64,000 nucleotides of DNA from Candidatus Magasanikiibacteriota bacterium (GCA_041666265.1 JBAYHH010000001.1:72056-136055), one strand, 5' to 3'. Positions 5,568 through 23,543 are shown, counted from the first letter of the stretch. A program made the numbers and translations. The notes: generated by a model from the letters alone, not told the origin.

Positions 5568-6992
5568 ATGAAATTATTGAAAATCTTATTATTAATATCA
5601 GCAACATTGGCGGTCTTGGGCGCGATCGGAGTTTATTTTTTTCAAAATGGCGTTTTGCAAGAAACTGTGATTAACGAAGCGCGAAAACAAATACCGGCGA
5701 TCGCGACCGCGCCCGATGATCTTATCCAAAATATTTTAGGCCTGAAGGCCACAAGGCATTATTTATTGTTATTTTTAAATAATACCGAAATGCGTCCCGG
5801 CGGCGGATTTATCGGGTCATACGGAGTAGTCAAAATGGAAGGCGGCCGACCGGAAATTTTGAAAGTCGAAGGCACCGAAATTTTGGATTACAGTCAAGAT
5901 GATTTTGATTTGCCGCCTCCACCCCAGCCGATCAGTGAATATTTAAAAGTGAAAAAATGGTATTTTCGCGATAGCAATTGGTCGCCGGATTTCGCGTCAT
6001 CGTCAGAGCGGGCGCTGGATTTTTATCGTCGAGAAAAAGGTTTGGCCGCCGATAGCATCGATGGAGTGATCGGCCTTACTCCGACCGTGATCGCGGAGAT
6101 TTTAAAAGTTACCGGACCGATAAAAATGGGCGGCCTTGAATTTAACAGCGATAATTTTGTGGAAAAGCTGGAGTATCAAGTGGAGTATGGTTACAAGGAG
6201 GATGATATCGCCCACAGTGATCGCAAGTTGATTTTGGGTGATTTGGCGCGCGCTCTCATGCAAAAAATTAAATACGACGCATTTTTAAACTGGAAAAAAT
6301 ATTTCGCTCTGGTCGAGAGATTGATCGCGGAAAAACAAATCATTTTTTATTCGACCGATGCCGGAGAGCAGAAATCATTGATTAATTCTGGTTGGGCCGG
6401 AGAAATGAAAAAATTCGCGGGTGATTATTTATTGTGGGCCGATGCCAACTTGGGCGCGCTGAAGACCGATTTGGCGGTCGAGAAATCGTTATCATATAGT
6501 TTGACCACCACTTCGATTGGCTATGAATCGGAAATTTCGATGACCTATCAACATTCCGGAAACATTGATTGGCGCACCAGTCGTTATCGAACTTACGCCC
6601 GCGCGTATGTGCCGGCGGGCAGTAAATTGGTGGCCGGGCAGGCAAATACCATTGGTTTAAAAACAGTCGAAAAATTAGCCGTTGATCAAGGGGTGGAAAA
6701 TGGTCGGCAGTGGTTTGGCGCTTTTGTGACCGTGGCACCGGGTCAAAGTTTGCGCTTGTCTTTTAAATATGTGCCCGCGCCCGCAATCGTAAAGATGATT
6801 GAAATGAATGATTATGGACTCTTGGTTCAAAAACAATTGGGCAGTGAAAATGTGAAATTAACACTGGGTATGGATTTTGGGAAAAAGGTGGTGTCGGCCA
6901 CGCCGCCTGAAGCTAAAGAAAAATTTGGCGACAACCGCTATGATTTACCAACTGATTTGACCACCGATCGTAAATTTGAAATCAAGTGGTGA
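5568..6992 (+). CDS. DUF4012-like membrane-anchored extracytoplasmic protein
   Basis: N-terminal TM/signal anchor; NNTEMRPGGGFIGSYG motif typical of DUF4012. Start chosen at ATG 5568, just after the GT2 stop. Confidence 0.55.
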   Translation: MKLLKILLLISATLAVLGAIGVYFFQNGVLQETVINEARKQIPAIATAPDDLIQNILGLKATRHYLLLFLNNTEMRPGGGFIGSYGVVKMEGGRPEILKVEGTEILDYSQDDFDLPPPPQPISEYLKVKKWYFRDSNWSPDFASSSERALDFYRREKGLAADSIDGVIGLTPTVIAEILKVTGPIKMGGLEFNSDNFVEKLEYQVEYGYKEDDIAHSDRKLILGDLARALMQKIKYDAFLNWKKYFALVERLIAEKQIIFYSTDAGEQKSLINSGWAGEMKKFAGDYLLWADANLGALKTDLAVEKSLSYSLTTTSIGYESEISMTYQHSGNIDWRTSRYRTYARAYVPAGSKLVAGQANTIGLKTVEKLAVDQGVENGRQWFGAFVTVAPGQSLRLSFKYVPAPAIVKMIEMNDYGLLVQKQLGSENVKLTLGMDFGKKVVSATPPEAKEKFGDNRYDLPTDLTTDRKFEIKW

Positions 6993-7051
6993 TATTTAGA
7001 GCGGTATTTTTGGTTTTTGAAATTTATTTAGAACTTGTAATTTGATCCAGT

Positions 7052-17994: not shown

Positions 17995-19017
17995 ATGGAT
18001 AATCAAATGGATAGCAAGGTTTCGAAAAATGTAAAGTTATTTTTGTTTGGGTTTGCCGGATTGCTGATCACGGCGCTCGTGCTTGTTGTCGGTGTATCGG
18101 CATATCGCGTTTATCATGCGGCCGCGAGCGACCGTTTTACGGTGACCGTCGCCAAGGCATTGCGTTTTCCGGCGTTTAAAGTGGGTGATAAAACTGTTTT
18201 ATACTCCGATTATGTCGAGGATTTGGCCGCTATTCATGTGATGCGCGATTTTGACAAAAATAATGGCGGACAAGGAGCGAGTCTGACCGAGGAACAAATG
18301 TCTGACCAAGTGCTTTGGCGTCTCGCCAACAATGTTTTGATCAAGCAGGCCGCTTTGCAAAATAAAGTAACGGTCGAAGATAAAGATATTGAAGCGATTA
18401 AGAGCCAAGTGCTTCAGCAATTTAAAACAACCGCCGAAGCCGAAACCGAACTTAAACGCCGTTATGGCTGGGATATGGATACTTATGACAAAAAAGTGAT
18501 TCGACCGTATGTTTTGCAAAATAAATTATCCGAAGCGATCGGCACTAATAATCAAGCGCGCGAAATGATGCGTGCCAAGGCGCAAGTGGTTCTCGATGAA
18601 ATCAAAAAAGGAGCGGATTTTGCCACCGAAGCGAAAAAATACGGTAGTGACGGCACCAAAGAAAATGGCGGTGACCTTGGTTGGTTTGGCCGAGGTGATA
18701 TGGTGCCGCAGTTTGAGGAAGCGGCGTTTGCTTTGAAAAAAGGCGAGCTGTCGCCGGAATTGGTAGAGACATCGTATGGTTATCATATCATCAAGCTCGT
18801 CGATACGCGCACTGAAAAAACCAAAGACGAGAAAGGTAAATCAGTGGACACCCCTCAAGTGCGCGCGAGTCACATTTTATTTCCTTTTCCGACCCTGACG
18901 ACTTATCTTGACGAGATTGTCAACAAAGCAAATTTTCATTTGTATCTCAATGTGCACAATCCGTTTGCGGAGTTAAAGAAACAAAAAGCCGCCGCTGCCA
19001 GCTCAACCAATCAATAA
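17995..19017 (+). CDS. parvulin-type peptidyl-prolyl isomerase (PrsA/SurA-like), membrane-anchored
   Basis: N-terminal TM; parvulin rotamase motifs RASHILF...GGDLGWFGRGDMVPQFEEAAF...YGYHIIKL. Confidence 0.75.
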   Translation: MDNQMDSKVSKNVKLFLFGFAGLLITALVLVVGVSAYRVYHAAASDRFTVTVAKALRFPAFKVGDKTVLYSDYVEDLAAIHVMRDFDKNNGGQGASLTEEQMSDQVLWRLANNVLIKQAALQNKVTVEDKDIEAIKSQVLQQFKTTAEAETELKRRYGWDMDTYDKKVIRPYVLQNKLSEAIGTNNQAREMMRAKAQVVLDEIKKGADFATEAKKYGSDGTKENGGDLGWFGRGDMVPQFEEAAFALKKGELSPELVETSYGYHIIKLVDTRTEKTKDEKGKSVDTPQVRASHILFPFPTLTTYLDEIVNKANFHLYLNVHNPFAELKKQKAAAASSTNQ

Positions 19018-19079
19018 TTATTACAGTTTTTAGGGTTTATAGGGGCTTCGACCACATCGAGGCCCCTTTGAAACCAAAT

Positions 19080-19150
19080 GCGGGATTAGTACATCGGTAG
19101 TATGCGTCCTTCCCAAGGATGAGAGGCCGGTTCGATTCCGGTATCCCGCT
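19080..19150 (+). tRNA. tRNA-Gly(CCC)
   Basis: GCGGGAT acceptor stem, anticodon stem CGTCC/GGATG with loop TTCCCAA (CCC), T-arm GCCGG-TTCGATT-CCGGT; CCA not encoded. Confidence 0.85.
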
Positions 19151-19187
19151 CGATTCGGTAAACGACGGAATGGCTAAAATTTGGTAA

Positions 19188-19230
19188 AATATACCCATAT
19201 TGTGGACACCTGTGGATAAGCGGGTATAGA
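19188..19230 (+). promoter_or_regulatory. putative controller-protein operator: inverted repeat ATATACCC...GGGTATAG flanking direct repeats TGTGGACA / TGTGGATAA
   Basis: seen directly ~30-70 nt upstream of the XRE gene start (19259). TGTGGATAAG recurs at 22523 and 22719. Confidence 0.45.
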
Positions 19231-19258
19231 TATTCCAATATCACTATTATTATATCAC

Positions 19259-19468
19259 ATGGCAAATAAACTTCCAAATATCGCCAGAAACATTAAGAAG
19301 TTGCGAAAAGAAAAAGGACTCTCGCAAGATCGTCTTTCAAAAATGGCGGATATAGCCCATCCGACCATTATTAAAATCGAATCCGGCGCAATCCAAAGCC
19401 CGACGGTTGAAACCGCGCAACGAATCGCGCGTGCGTTGGGTGTTGGAATTGATGACTTAATGAAATAA
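19259..19468 (+). CDS. XRE/Cro-type HTH protein, probable controller (C) protein of the downstream restriction-modification module
   Basis: 69 aa; LRKEKGLSQDRLSKMADIAHPTIIKIESG classic HTH_3; sits directly upstream of the MTase-REase pair. Confidence 0.7.
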   Translation: MANKLPNIARNIKKLRKEKGLSQDRLSKMADIAHPTIIKIESGAIQSPTVETAQRIARALGVGIDDLMK

Positions 19469-19475
19469 TTTTTAT

Positions 19476-21251
19476 ATGGCGAAATTAAAAGACACTCCAA
19501 AATTTGATCGACCACGAGAAAAATATATTGAAAAAGGTCCTGACGCGCTAACCGATAGCGAACTTTTGGCGATTTTACTTGGCAATGGCACAAAAGGCAT
19601 GAATGTAAAAGTCGTTGCGCAAAAAATTATAAAAAAATTTGGAACCAATCTGATAAATGTGTCGGTTGACGAACTGAAAGAAATTAAAGGAATTGGGCAA
19701 GCAAAGGCATTACAAATTGTTTCGGTGATTGCGTTGGCGAAACGACTGTTTGATAAGCAAAATGCGCCGGACAATTTAGTTTTATCTGCGCAAGACGCGG
19801 TAAAATTAGTGATAGAATTGAAAGATAAAAAACAAGAACACCTCGTTTGTTTGTATCTTAATGCTCGCAATGCCTTAATTAAAAAGGAAATTGTTTCCAT
19901 TGGAACGCTGGACAAAAGCATTGTTCATCCGCGTGATATTTTTGCATTGGGTTTAGAGTTGCATGCGGCCGGTGTTATTCTCATACACAATCATCCGTCC
20001 GGGGATGTTAGACCAAGCGAGCAGGATAAGCAAGTTGTCAAAAGAATTATTGAAGCTGGGCAGTTAATGGGTGTTAACGTCGTAGATTTTCTCATAGTGG
20101 CCAAGAATGCCACGCATAGCGTGTTGGGTGAAACCAGTAACACCAAGTTAGCCGACATCGAATATGTGGCCGAAGGATTGCAAGCGTCGTTGTTTAGTTT
20201 GCTAACGGAAACAAAGCAGGTTTATTTTTATGGAAACAATTTGATTGATACTTCGCCGACCAGCAGTAAAAGTTTTCGTTTCATTGATTTGTTTGCCGGC
20301 ATTGGCGGTATACGAATCGCTTTTGAACGCAATGGCGGTCAATGTGTTTTCACATCTGAATTTGATGAACCGTGCCAAGTAATGTATGAGGCAAATTTTG
20401 GAGATAAACCACATGGAGATATCACGAAAATTTCTGCCGATGAAATACCGGATCACGATATTTTAACTGGCGGTTTTCCCTGCCAAGCATTTAGTATAAT
20501 TGGAAAGAAACGTGGATTTGCGGATACTCGCGGCACTTTATTTTTTGATGTTGAAAGAATTTTAAAGGTGAAACAACCAAAAGCTTTTCTTCTGGAGAAT
20601 GTAAAACAGTTAACATCTCATGACGGGGGGCGCACATTTAAGATAATTATAGAATCTTTAAAAAATCTAGGGTATTATGTCCATTACAAAGTGCTTAACG
20701 GTCTTGACTTTGGTGTGCCACAAAGACGACAAAGGATAATGATAGTTGGTTTCAAAGAGAATTATCCTTTTGAATTTCCGAAGAGCGGATCGGATAACAA
20801 AACATTAGCCGATATTTTGGAACCGGACGGCAAAATTGATAAAAAACATTATCTAAGCGACAGTTTTCGGAAAAAATTGCAAGAAAGATTAAAAGAACAG
20901 GGCAAAAAGCCTGCACCCCAACCATCTGTTTGGCATGAGAATAAAGGTGGCAATATCGGGATGCACCCTTACTCGTGCGCGTTGAGAGCCAATGGATCTT
21001 ATAATTATTTGACAGTGAACGGAGAGCGACGACTTACACCAAGAGAAATGTTGCGTTTGCAAGGATTCCCAGATACTTTTAGAGTTGTTGTTCCGGATAC
21101 ACAAGTGAGAAAACAAGCGGGCAATAGTGTGGTTATTCCAAAAATTCAAGCAGTCGCGCGCGCTATGGTGGAAGCAATGAAACAGCCAGCAAGGGACGAA
21201 TCACATAAAGTTGGCTCATTAATTAATAAATCTGAAATAATTTATGCCTAA
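19476..21251 (+). CDS. fusion protein: N-terminal RadC (HhH + JAB/MPN, UPF0758) domain joined to a C-terminal DNA (cytosine-5)-methyltransferase
   Basis: aa 1-225: DSELLAILLGNG...GIGQAKALQI (HhH) and HNHPSGDVRPSEQD (JAMM). aa ~260-591: m5C-MTase motif I DLFAGIGG, motif IV GFPCQAFS, motif VI LLENVKQL, motif X QAGNSV. Confidence 0.8.
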   Translation: MAKLKDTPKFDRPREKYIEKGPDALTDSELLAILLGNGTKGMNVKVVAQKIIKKFGTNLINVSVDELKEIKGIGQAKALQIVSVIALAKRLFDKQNAPDNLVLSAQDAVKLVIELKDKKQEHLVCLYLNARNALIKKEIVSIGTLDKSIVHPRDIFALGLELHAAGVILIHNHPSGDVRPSEQDKQVVKRIIEAGQLMGVNVVDFLIVAKNATHSVLGETSNTKLADIEYVAEGLQASLFSLLTETKQVYFYGNNLIDTSPTSSKSFRFIDLFAGIGGIRIAFERNGGQCVFTSEFDEPCQVMYEANFGDKPHGDITKISADEIPDHDILTGGFPCQAFSIIGKKRGFADTRGTLFFDVERILKVKQPKAFLLENVKQLTSHDGGRTFKIIIESLKNLGYYVHYKVLNGLDFGVPQRRQRIMIVGFKENYPFEFPKSGSDNKTLADILEPDGKIDKKHYLSDSFRKKLQERLKEQGKKPAPQPSVWHENKGGNIGMHPYSCALRANGSYNYLTVNGERRLTPREMLRLQGFPDTFRVVVPDTQVRKQAGNSVVIPKIQAVARAMVEAMKQPARDESHKVGSLINKSEIIYA

Positions 21252-22302
21252 CATTAGAATGTCAAAAGAGGCGATAGATACAATTATCCGCAAGTCGCGC
21301 GTCCATTTGTATAAGCCAATCCAAATTGCCGAATTACTATATCATCACAGAATAGATAAAAAACGATGGGACCTGCTTGATCTGGAATCGTATCGCAATG
21401 TATCAAAAAGATGGCGCGACGAAGTGTCCAATCGTTTGGTTGGCAGAATTTGCACATCAAGTCAAAAATTTCAAGATAATATTTTTGATACAAACGCAAT
21501 GCCGCCCAAGTTGCTGCGCGATTTAGGTCTTTTCAATAAGCGACGCAATGGGTTCGTAGAAGCGTATATTTATAATGCCTTAAATGAAAGACTGTCATCG
21601 GTGCATGATGTAAACACTTACATTCACAAATCAACAGCGGTGAGTTTTGATTTAAAAAAGATAGTCGCTTTGTTTGAGTTGAGCCCGGGATTAAAAAGAA
21701 GTGTGGACAAAATTTATGAAATTCTTGTATATGCGTTATTTTCTACTATCGTAAGAGCTCTACGCGCCCAAATAACACTTGAAATTTTGAACGAAGACAA
21801 GCAGCTGCTTAAAGATTTTGAGTCCTTTATTAAAATGGTGATGGGTATTGATGCCAAGAATACAAAGATAATATTGCCTGCAGCTTTATATAGAGCCGGT
21901 GTCGCCAATGCCGCAGATAGAGGGTTGGATATGTGGGCAAATTTCGGTCTGGCTATTCAAGTTAAACATTTAACACTTACGCCGGAATTAATGGAGGATG
22001 TGGCGAATGAAATAGCGGCGGATAGAATGGTTGTGGTTTGTATAGATTCCGAGAAAGAGGCCATAAATAATTTATTATCGCAAGTTGGTTGGGGAGAAAA
22101 AATCCATGGGATTATCACCATTGATGATCTGGATCAATGGTATAAAATTTGTCTTAGCGATAAGTATAGAAGTAATTTAGGTAAAAATTTATTGAAGGAT
22201 GTTGAAAGAGAGTTTGGTCTGGAATTCCCATCAAATTCTGAATTGATTCCATTTATAAACGAACGCGGATACGCGAAATTTAAGACGGATTTTAAATGGT
22301 AA
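21244..22302 (+). CDS. putative type II restriction endonuclease (unknown specificity), translationally coupled to the MTase
   Basis: 8-nt overlap with the MTase gene; AT-rich (~38% GC, estimated by eye); 352 aa with no similarity to housekeeping families. Assignment is by gene context. Confidence 0.45.
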   Translation: MPNIRMSKEAIDTIIRKSRVHLYKPIQIAELLYHHRIDKKRWDLLDLESYRNVSKRWRDEVSNRLVGRICTSSQKFQDNIFDTNAMPPKLLRDLGLFNKRRNGFVEAYIYNALNERLSSVHDVNTYIHKSTAVSFDLKKIVALFELSPGLKRSVDKIYEILVYALFSTIVRALRAQITLEILNEDKQLLKDFESFIKMVMGIDAKNTKIILPAALYRAGVANAADRGLDMWANFGLAIQVKHLTLTPELMEDVANEIAADRMVVVCIDSEKEAINNLLSQVGWGEKIHGIITIDDLDQWYKICLSDKYRSNLGKNLLKDVEREFGLEFPSNSELIPFINERGYAKFKTDFKW

Positions 22303-22446
22303 AGTATAAATTGTCAAACACATTGATGATGAATGGTTGTTTAAATAAAAAACAACCCCTTGCGGGGATGTTTCCAACCTTGTTTCCTAGACTGGTGACC
22401 CAGCCACGCCACCATCCGGTGACAGTTCGGAGAACAGGTTTTTGTA

Positions 22447-23301
22447 ATGCTATTATATACTGCAAACAAGCACTTGTCAATAGAAAATTTTGATATTTTA
22501 TCTAATATTAGCCAAAAGGGGCTGTGGATAAGTAATAATATGTCCGAATATTACACCCCTCAACGCACTAAAAATTTATACGACCCAAAATCACTGGACT
22601 CTTTTAAACTCTCGCGTTCCAAGATAGATTTGTTTTTAGAGTGTCCGCGTTGTTTTTATTTAGACCGTCGTTTAGGTGTGGGCCGACCGCCCGGATTTCC
22701 ATTTGCACTTAATTCGGCTGTGGATAAGTTGCTCAAGAAGGAATTTGATATCCACCGTGCTAAAAAACAGGCGCATCCATTGATAACCCACTACGGCGTT
22801 GACGCAGTGCCAATCGCGCACAAAGATTTGGATATCTGGCGTGAAAATTTTAAAGGCATACAATATTTACACGAGCCAACCAATTTGGTTATCACCGGCG
22901 CTATTGATGATCTCTGGCAAAATTCAAAAGGGGAGTATATTGTGGTGGATTATAAGTCCACATCCAAGGACGAAGATATTACCGAGCTTAATAAAGATTG
23001 GCAAGGCGGCTATAAGCGCCAAATGGAGGTGTACCAGTGGCTATTACGCCGGAATGGATATAAAGTGTCTAAGACTGGGTATTTTGTTTATTGCAATGGC
23101 CAAACCGACCGCAAGGCGTTTGATGCTAAGTTGGAATTTGATATCACTTTAATTGCCTACAAGGGCGATGATTCTTGGGTGGATAAAGCTGTTATTGGCG
23201 CGCATAAGTGTTTGAATGGCAATAAAATTCCAAAATCCGGCGCGGATTGCGATTATTGTGCGTATGTACAGGCGGTAGAAAGTAAAACATTGTTGACTTA
23301 G
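22447..23301 (+). CDS. Cas4/RecB-like PD-(D/E)xK nuclease with predicted Fe-S cluster cysteines (start uncertain; alternative ATG at 22540)
   Basis: N-terminal CPRCFY; AIDDLW...YIVVDYKST (D...D/ExK); QMEVYQW (QxxxY); C-terminal C-x14-CDYC cysteine cluster. Confidence 0.65.
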   Translation: MLLYTANKHLSIENFDILSNISQKGLWISNNMSEYYTPQRTKNLYDPKSLDSFKLSRSKIDLFLECPRCFYLDRRLGVGRPPGFPFALNSAVDKLLKKEFDIHRAKKQAHPLITHYGVDAVPIAHKDLDIWRENFKGIQYLHEPTNLVITGAIDDLWQNSKGEYIVVDYKSTSKDEDITELNKDWQGGYKRQMEVYQWLLRRNGYKVSKTGYFVYCNGQTDRKAFDAKLEFDITLIAYKGDDSWVDKAVIGAHKCLNGNKIPKSGADCDYCAYVQAVESKTLLT

Positions 23302-23417: not shown

Positions 23418-23490
23418 GCCGCCTTAGCTCAGTTGGTAGAGCGACACATTCGTAACGTGTAGGTCTCGGGTTCGATTCCCGAAGGCGGCT
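23418..23490 (+). tRNA. tRNA-Thr(CGU)
   Basis: GCCGCCT acceptor, TAGCTCAGTTGGTAGAGC D-arm, anticodon loop TTCGTAA (CGU), T-arm TCGGG-TTCGATT-CCCGA. Confidence 0.8.
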
Positions 23491-23543
23491 CGATTTATAC
23501 ACAGCGCCATCTTGCCGATTGGCTTTTTTTGTTTTTGAATGTG

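Follow-up and report, generated by a model that had tools for sequence, protein, structure and literature searches.

Single DnaA-box-like sites before a restriction–modification operon and a Cas4-like nuclease gene of a Candidatus Magasanikiibacteriota bacterium: candidate targets of a host factor

A 64,000-nucleotide stretch of DNA from a Candidatus Magasanikiibacteriota bacterium (GCA_041666265.1, JBAYHH010000001.1:72056-136055), referred to here at its full length as the window, holds exactly three copies of the 9-mer TGTGGATAA. They lie at 19211-19219, 22523-22531 and 22719-22727, all on the plus strand and all inside a 4.3-kb island of lower G+C content that runs from a tRNA-Gly to a tRNA-Thr gene. 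The island carries a restriction–modification (RM) operon, headed by the gene for a small helix-turn-helix (HTH) protein of the XRE type and continuing with a RadC-like/cytosine methyltransferase fusion and a HaeII-family endonuclease; it is followed by the remnant of a DUF3800 gene, a small RNA (sRNA) gene on the opposite strand and the gene for a Cas4-like nuclease (Table 1). Copy 1 of the 9-mer is found in the leader of the XRE gene, copy 2 between the divergent sRNA and nuclease genes, and copy 3 within the nuclease gene. An earlier reading of this DNA from the letters alone (the sequence-only reading) took the three copies for sites of a shared regulator, most likely the XRE protein acting as the controller (C) protein of the RM system. 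We argue below that the regulator, if there is one, is more probably a protein of the host.

Table 1. Features of the tRNA-bounded island, in window coordinates
Feature	Position	Strand	Basis
tRNA-Gly(ccc), left island border	19080..19151	+	ARAGORN; Rfam tRNA 55.9 bits
P1 extended -10 TGGTAAAAT, conserved XRE-operon leader promoter	19182..19190	+	five-leader alignment; upstream regions of ~70 XRE homologues
Inverted repeat TATACCC/GGGTATA, arms 25 nt apart	19190-19196 / 19222-19228	.	repeat search; leader comparison
Near copy TGTGGACA	19201..19208	+	leader alignment
Copy 1, CTGTGGATAAG, DnaA-box-like site in XRE leader	19210..19220	+	sequence count; leader alignment
Near-invariant 34 bp up to XRE ATG	19225..19258	+	alignment of five XRE leaders
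XRE/HTH_3 protein, 69 aa, putative controller, operon gene 1	19259..19468	+	Pfam HTH_3 1.2e-17
RadC-like JAB :: C5 cytosine DNA methyltransferase fusion, 591 aa	19476..21251	+	Pfam UPF0758_N, RadC, DNA_methylase 2e-95
HaeII-family restriction endonuclease, 352 aa	21244..22302	+	Pfam RE_HaeII 4e-127, full length
DUF3800 3'-end remnant KHIDDEWLFK* (last ten codons)	22316..22348	+	homology to the end of the intact L008 DUF3800 gene, starting ~22311-22315
DUF3800-IX sRNA gene	22355..22480	-	Rfam RF02968 53.4 bits (gathering 36.8), full length; promoter/terminator scan
Copy 2, GGCTGTGGATAAGT, DnaA-box-like, divergent sRNA/nuclease intergenic region	22520..22533	+	sequence count; L008 comparison
Cas4-like PD-(D/E)XK nuclease, four Cys, 253 aa	22540..23301	+	Pfam PDDEXK_1 2.8e-16
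Copy 3, GGCTGTGGATAAGT, within nuclease gene, encodes (S)AVDK(L)	22716..22729	+	orthologue codon comparison
tRNA-Thr(cgt), right island border	23418..23491	+	ARAGORN; Rfam

The 9-mer is over-represented in the window, where 0.58 ± 0.71 copies are expected and three were reached in one of 100 shuffles. The sequence-only reading, which put the expectation at about 0.5, was right in this respect, as it was in equating the word with the core of a DnaA box, which all three copies match perfectly. It had also seen an exact 12-mer repeat, GCTGTGGATAAG, at 22521-22532 and 22717-22728; the repeat is in fact 14 nt long and forms the window's sole 14-mer pair within 200 bp (Markov expectation 0.05), and copy 1 agrees with the 12-mer at 11 of 12 positions (CCTGTGGATAAG, 19209-19220). 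Numbers of this size leave some room for pure coincidence, in which no copy would be functional. Three copies are few, and words one base off the DnaA box are themselves frequent in the window (34 against 15 expected), a hint of bias in base composition or codon use.

For copy 3, coincidence is the explanation that we adopt. Its codons, tcG GCT GTG GAT AAG Ttg, read S-A-V-D-K-L, and among the best 80 of 591 relatives of the nuclease the peptide N-S-A-V-D-x-L-L is kept as third codon positions vary, with H, T, A, K or other residues at x. At this position the 9-mer is present in none of the 80 orthologues, including none of the 13 that have K at x. Other orthologues carry it in a different codon context, D-L-W-I-N/K, so that coding for V-D-K or W-I-N easily yields the word. 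We therefore judge that copy 3 is a by-product of the codons for the conserved A-V-D-K and that it matches copy 2 by coincidence, which takes one of the three supposed C-protein sites out of the argument and is also a point in favor of coincidence overall.

Copies 1 and 2 occupy regulatory positions. Copy 2 lies directly before the nuclease gene, whose true start is the ATG at 22540, since orthologues begin MSEYYTPQ or MSQYYNPQ at the same point; 7 nt, and not 8 as first reported, separate the 12-mer from this ATG. On its other side the sRNA gene has a promoter that matches the consensus at 12 of 12 positions (TTGACA-17-TATAAT, 22480..22452), an RNA at 22440..22372 and a terminator hairpin at 22369..22355. 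The comparison for copy 2 comes from one relative, Ca. Nomurabacteria GW2011_GWA2_40_9 (L008), in which the exact 14-mer recurs at 6980-6993, 8-9 nt before the nuclease ATG. The sRNA–nuclease spacer of this locus has diverged, yet TTAGCC-N5-GGCTGTGGATAAGT is kept, and the sRNA promoter and the nuclease gene are present; the RNA itself is the same (DUF3800-IX, 51.5 bits), so that the sRNA–nuclease pairing is common to both loci. Survival of an exact 14-mer amid a diverged spacer speaks against coincidence, as does the placement of both non-coding copies within the island's ~0.45 kb of intergenic DNA. L008 also bears on the identity of the reader: it lacks an XRE homologue, although RadC, a type III RM system, an intact DUF3800 gene, the DUF3800-IX RNA and the nuclease are all there. 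The copy-2 site is therefore older than, and independent of, the cassette with the order C protein, methyltransferase, restriction enzyme (C-M-R) that now stands in the window, and its exact retention in a locus devoid of an XRE gene contradicts the earlier assignment to the C protein.

Copy 1 can be followed through the leaders of related XRE genes. A metagenome scan returned 80 loci with XRE relatives, and the window was aligned with four of them (L081-L084), whose XRE proteins are 83-94% identical and almost identical in the helix-turn-helix. All five leaders share one layout: the conserved promoter P1, a variable segment of ~30 nt that holds copy 1, and 34 bp that lead up to the ATG. With the P1 transcription start inferred from sequence, copy 1 would fall at about +14 to +24, and the box ends 39 nt before the XRE ATG. 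The P1 -35 element is a poor ACGACG in the window and TTTACG, TTTACC or TTTACT, at a spacing of 17 nt, in relatives. Within the 34-bp block, 27 of 34 columns are invariant across the five loci, which share its last 23 bp (19236-19258) exactly; a tandem 14-nt direct repeat, TATTCCAATATCAC / TATTATTATATCAC, occupies 19231-19258. The box position, in turn, reads CTGTGGATAAG in the window, CTGTGGATAGG in L081, TTGTGGATAAC in L082, TTGCGAAAAGG in L083 and TTGTCAGTAGG in L084, the core being kept in the first two of these relatives and lost in the other two. The loss in L083 and L084 is what coincidence would allow. It also argues that copy 1 is not the XRE operator, because the box disappears under the same reading head while the adjoining DNA is nearly unchanged; the XRE protein's own operator is more likely to be 19225-19258 with its tandem 14-nt repeat.

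The near copy at 19201 and the flanking inverted repeat that had been described for this leader are both present. The near copy is kept in no relative, which removes a further prop of the C-protein claim. The inverted repeat encloses the variable segment with copy 1, and its arm sequences differ among relatives, an inverted repeat being usually kept. An RNA hairpin formed by this repeat was rejected, as the 5' arm abuts the -10 element and so lies upstream of the deduced start of transcription; for the same reason the repeat acts, if at all, at the DNA level. Among the XRE leaders at large (window 19180-19258; L085-L087, L089-L092, L093-L107, L109-L131), the -10 region lies within a long inverted repeat in every subgroup, with the second arm 20-50 bp downstream, arms that co-vary between groups, and a right arm that often reads TATAAT on the opposite strand. 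These repeats may represent a face-to-face promoter pair or a long-range operator.

How, then, does the proposal fare that TGTGGATAA is the C-box of the 69-aa protein, through which it co-regulates the RM operon and the nuclease gene? Copy 1 does sit in the XRE leader inside an inverted repeat, the same position holds TGTGGATA in L081 and the full 9-mer in L082, and XRE homologues of 38-42% identity in L010, L018 and L026 are accompanied by TGTGGATAAG in a Cro/CI-like switch region. Moreover, the XRE gene encodes a small HTH protein and stands first in an RM operon, as in the C.PvuII, C.AhdI, C.Esp1396I, C.EcoRV and C.EcoO109I systems (classes of Sorokin et al. 2009), with which it also shares conserved DNA directly before the start codon, the absence of a Shine-Dalgarno sequence and a plausible autoregulation. 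In its sequence, the protein appears to be a generic XRE protein of the SinR/HigA-like kind: C.BclI is the only C protein among its PDB matches and a weak one (E 0.0075), SinR, HigA, DdrOC and CylR2 score better, and its top NCBIfam hits (RstR, HipB-like) all stay under the cut-off.

C proteins act as dimers on palindromic operators of the form Z-X-N-X*-GTG-x-n-x*-Z*, usually paired at a fixed spacing and ~17-18 nt from the start codon (PMC2632904). Unlike such C-boxes, TGTGGATAA is a single, asymmetric, non-palindromic site that lacks a conserved duplicate, TGTGGACA being unconserved, and it stands at 39 nt rather than 17-18 nt from the ATG. Nor is it tied to the recognition helix, which is almost identical in the box-less L083 and L084, where the 34 bp near the ATG are near-invariant. 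Neither does it travel with the gene: apart from copy 2 in L008, at least 20 unrelated intergenic contexts have the 9-mer without this particular protein nearby. What stands out as the operator in L010 is a palindrome, TTAAGCAA-TT-TTGCTTAA, and not the box. The operon as a whole also departs from C-protein systems in its order C-M-R with a conserved promoter ~70 nt upstream, as opposed to their short leaderless arrangement. A C-operator upstream of the nuclease was sought separately and rejected, in that the invariants of the XRE leader (ATATCAC repeats, GATATT-CC-AATATC) are absent from 22440-22540 and the look-alike GATATTTTATC / CTAATATTAG in this interval is not kept in L008. We consider it very improbable that the XRE protein reads the 9-mer. 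The broader part of the sequence-only reading survives: two copies stand at regulatory positions, intergenic copies appear to be under selection in relatives, and one factor acting at both promoters is plausible; it is the equation of this factor with the C protein that fails. The distinction is of practical value, as it stops the wrong annotation of a DnaA-box-like repeat as a C-box from spreading.

The wider occurrence of the motif was examined in ~1.4 Mb from about 160 related loci, mostly labelled Patescibacteria. In DNA free of open reading frames (ORFs), TGTGGATAA occurs 25 times against 2.0 expected from a second-order Markov model, a ~12-fold excess, and its 27 one-mismatch neighbours are mostly not enriched. 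With a second mask there were 19 intergenic copies against 1.6 ± 1.8 for 300 same-letter permutations, none of which reached 19. The word is thus common and dispersed across related genomes; that it should be common throughout the genome was what the sequence-only reading had itself named as telling against the C protein. Enrichment of the exact word, not shared by most of its neighbours, is also an argument against coincidence, which we regard as unlikely for the three copies together, though clearly less so than the C-box.

The 25 intergenic instances, from at least 20 independent contexts, align over ~12 conserved nt as yTGTGGATAAsT (Y at -1, S at +10, T at +11), and no dyad partner or half-site, co-motif or -10 element was found at a fixed distance from them. 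The box lies between promoter and ATG at window copies 1 and 2 and in L008, L017, L082 and L090, and just upstream of the -35 in L005, L010/L018/L026/L166, L019 and L051; the genes downstream include XRE-type regulators, methylases, the nuclease, an integrase and others. One of these settings, in a putative Patescibacteria prophage, is a divergent switch of the Cro/CI-like type (L010 9733-9886, also L018, L026 and L166), in which the palindromic operator is accompanied by a perfect TGTGGATAAG box between the two promoters. Three DnaA-box-like words, TGTGGATAA, TGGATAATT and AATTATCCA, form a cluster within 40 bp on the minus strand of L153 (~2080-2115), upstream of a tyrosine-recombinase gene; the cluster might be an element origin or control region.

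Several other identities for the motif were tried and rejected. It is not a dyad, as an SOS/LexA box would be, and it is neither an alternative-sigma -35 nor an extended -10, for no -10 stands at a fixed distance in the 25 instances and its hexamer lacks the critical -11A. A Shine-Dalgarno-like or other RNA-level element is excluded by distances to the ATG of 5 to ~120 nt and by the lack of complementarity to the 16S 3' end. Three copies in 64 kb are too few for a DNA uptake sequence, and independent instances resemble each other over no more than ~12-15 nt, unlike a dispersed repeat or miniature inverted-repeat transposable element. Finally, RGCGCY is absent from both regulatory regions, which disposes of a methylation-sensitive promoter.

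The boxes might alternatively be recombination cores, akin to attachment (att) sites, that flank and mobilize the C-M-R cassette, given that 11-mer direct repeats of CTGTGGATAAG at 19210 and 22522 bracket it. Near-identical XRE genes at the head of different RM cassettes do indicate cassette exchange, two boxes bracket an XRE–HNH pair in L055, and a box marks the end of an hsdR–nuclease block in L001. The boundaries of the cassette fall elsewhere, however. Homology to the DUF3800 gene resumes directly past the stop codon of the HaeII-like endonuclease (the intact counterpart region is L008 6184-6810), which places the right junction at ~22303-22315, 215 bp left of copy 2, and the left junction lies downstream of the XRE gene. 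To judge by this homology, most of a DUF3800 gene gave way to the RM cassette, which spared the associated sRNA gene. Conserved sequence flanks each box on either side, in the XRE leader as well as in the sRNA–nuclease spacer of L008; L083 and L084 exchanged cassettes without a box; and one box per operon would also give the flanking pattern. A recombination role therefore seems to us scarcely more credible than the C-box.

This leaves a site for a host protein. In E. coli, Vibrio, Pseudomonas and Bacillus, DnaA binds TTATCCACA as its high-affinity box (PMC4285127). The oriC boxes R1 and R4, checked in an E. coli chromosome, both read CTGTGGATAAC, and the window copies read CTGTGGATAAG. All three window copies have the consensus 9-mer, the site is asymmetric and single, and its occurrence is non-random in a sample that is biased to defence and mobile loci. 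A site so sharply specified, asymmetric and single fits a monomeric reader, such as domain IV of DnaA, better than an HTH dimer. DnaA boxes serve as operators outside oriC at the E. coli dnaA, nrdAB and mioC promoters, in the B. subtilis DnaA regulon and in plasmid and phage control regions. Like these, the present boxes share the 9-mer TTATCCACA, have flanks that match R1/R4 CTGTGGATAAC and are single, asymmetric and adjacent to promoters; they differ in being single predicted boxes that precede the genes of an RM operon and of a Cas4-like nuclease, in a bacterium of the candidate phyla radiation. We predict, with a probability of roughly one half, that a conserved host factor, most probably DnaA, recognizes copies 1 and 2 as single sites of high affinity.

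Several points weigh against this prediction. The box is lost in two of the four close XRE relatives, so any function of copy 1 would be dispensable, and the 14-nt identity of copies 2 and 3, which we treat as coincidental, is a little unlikely to have arisen by chance (0.05 expected per window). No box occurs in the window's other ~3.7 kb of intergenic DNA, and the loci compared were picked for the nuclease or the XRE gene, so that the enrichment may reflect mobile and defence islands and not whole genomes. The DnaA-box consensus comes from other bacteria and is assumed for this lineage; a search by regular expression in six frames found no DnaA signatures in the window or in ~170 related loci, which include no dnaA or oriC of the lineage. 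Strong intergenic enrichment of single perfect boxes is not known in model bacteria.

It is also possible that the site is a real operator for a factor other than DnaA, for example another conserved regulator of Patescibacteria or of mobile elements. The loci that gave the enrichment are rich in defence and mobile genes, the window carries no box in its core part, and most boxes are oriented like the downstream gene. Such a factor would have to account for an exact match, flanks included, to the universal high-affinity DnaA box and for an asymmetric single site, which is suited to a monomeric reader and unusual for HTH dimers; no candidate gene was found to co-occur with the boxes. We give this alternative less than half the credence of the DnaA reading, a little more than coincidence.

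Should DnaA be the reader, the host protein, through its domain IV, would occupy one site that separates the promoter of the XRE-RadC/Dcm-HaeII operon from its start codon and another that directly precedes the nuclease ATG. Bound factor would modulate transcription of both units, most simply as a repressor or roadblock, and the expression of horizontally acquired genes would thereby be tied to the replication state of the host. Candidate-phyla-radiation bacteria have small genomes, few regulators and heavy host dependence. If DnaA does bind the boxes, RM systems and nucleases of these organisms would be wired to the replication initiator, which would connect defence expression to the cell cycle in a new way. 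In a more ambitious and tentative reading, which we hold to be rather unlikely, selection maintains the perfect DnaA box as a portable control element in the defence and mobile cassettes of Patescibacteria. A single high-affinity box between promoter and start codon would then let horizontally acquired RM operons, nucleases, methylases and phage switches read the DnaA state, and with it replication or growth, of their host; nuclease expression might, for example, be kept low at entry or at stalled replication. For RM systems this would amount to a host-coupled layer of control separate from the cassette's XRE regulator. The motif is a known type of site, of which its presence in the leaders of RM and nuclease genes, together with strong intergenic enrichment in candidate-phyla-radiation loci, makes a new instance. 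We know of no earlier account in which the perfect box is markedly enriched in the intergenic DNA of defence and mobile loci.

The nuclease falls short of the thresholds for Cas4 proper (TIGR00372 32.4 bits against a cut-off of 65; Pfam Cas_Cas4 17 against 22.7) and passes that of PDDEXK_1 only, and no CRISPR-cas genes lie near its gene. The best 80 of its relatives are 64-83% identical and come from many phyla, the loci (L001-L080, L163-L170) being labelled Patescibacteria, Nitrospirae, Omnitrophota, Scalindua, Ignavibacteria and even archaea. The gene is found on eight IMG/VR viral contigs and usually adjoins RM or helicase genes. It is widely spread by horizontal transfer, and its conservation is unusually high for such an accessory gene.

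The neighbouring sRNA resembles the DUF3800-associated RNA motifs (DUF3800-IX, Weinberg et al. 2017) in its full match to RF02968, its own promoter and terminator and its position beside a DUF3800 remnant. It departs from the usual DUF3800-IX setting in that the RM cassette displaced nearly the whole DUF3800 gene, with the RNA and nuclease genes retained. The function of DUF3800-associated RNAs is unknown (PMC5737381).

In the fusion ORF, the JAB part comes with UPF0758 N-terminal and HhH regions. In L008 and L106, RadC is a gene of its own and likewise stands first in the cassette, and RadC therefore seems to be a regular partner of such RM modules. RGCGCY sites, of the HaeII type, are absent from 18078-22896, a 4.8-kb interval that contains the RM cassette, and occur elsewhere in the window once per ~680 bp. 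Their total is 94 against 66 expected. Avoidance of the presumed target is seen in the cassette but not in the host.

The XRE genes of L081-L084 head different cargo, namely an unknown module (L081), a type I HsdM (L082), a type III Mod+Res pair (L083) and two N6/N4 methylases (L084). In these and ~70 further loci, the modules that follow a near-identical XRE gene and leader are of type I, of type III and of several type II kinds. Many metagenome contigs stop 100-500 bp upstream of the XRE gene. These observations suggest a strain-variable hotspot of cassette exchange at the XRE gene, which adjoins a tRNA gene in the window and in L156. In a comparison aimed at an empty site, the sole other contig with the same PpiC protein (L162) belonged to the same strain (99.95% identity), and no cassette-free allele was obtained. 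The layout for RM exchange at this site is modular, with a front end (the XRE gene and its leader beside the tRNA) that is common across loci and a back end (the DUF3800 remnant, sRNA and nuclease) that is shared with L008.

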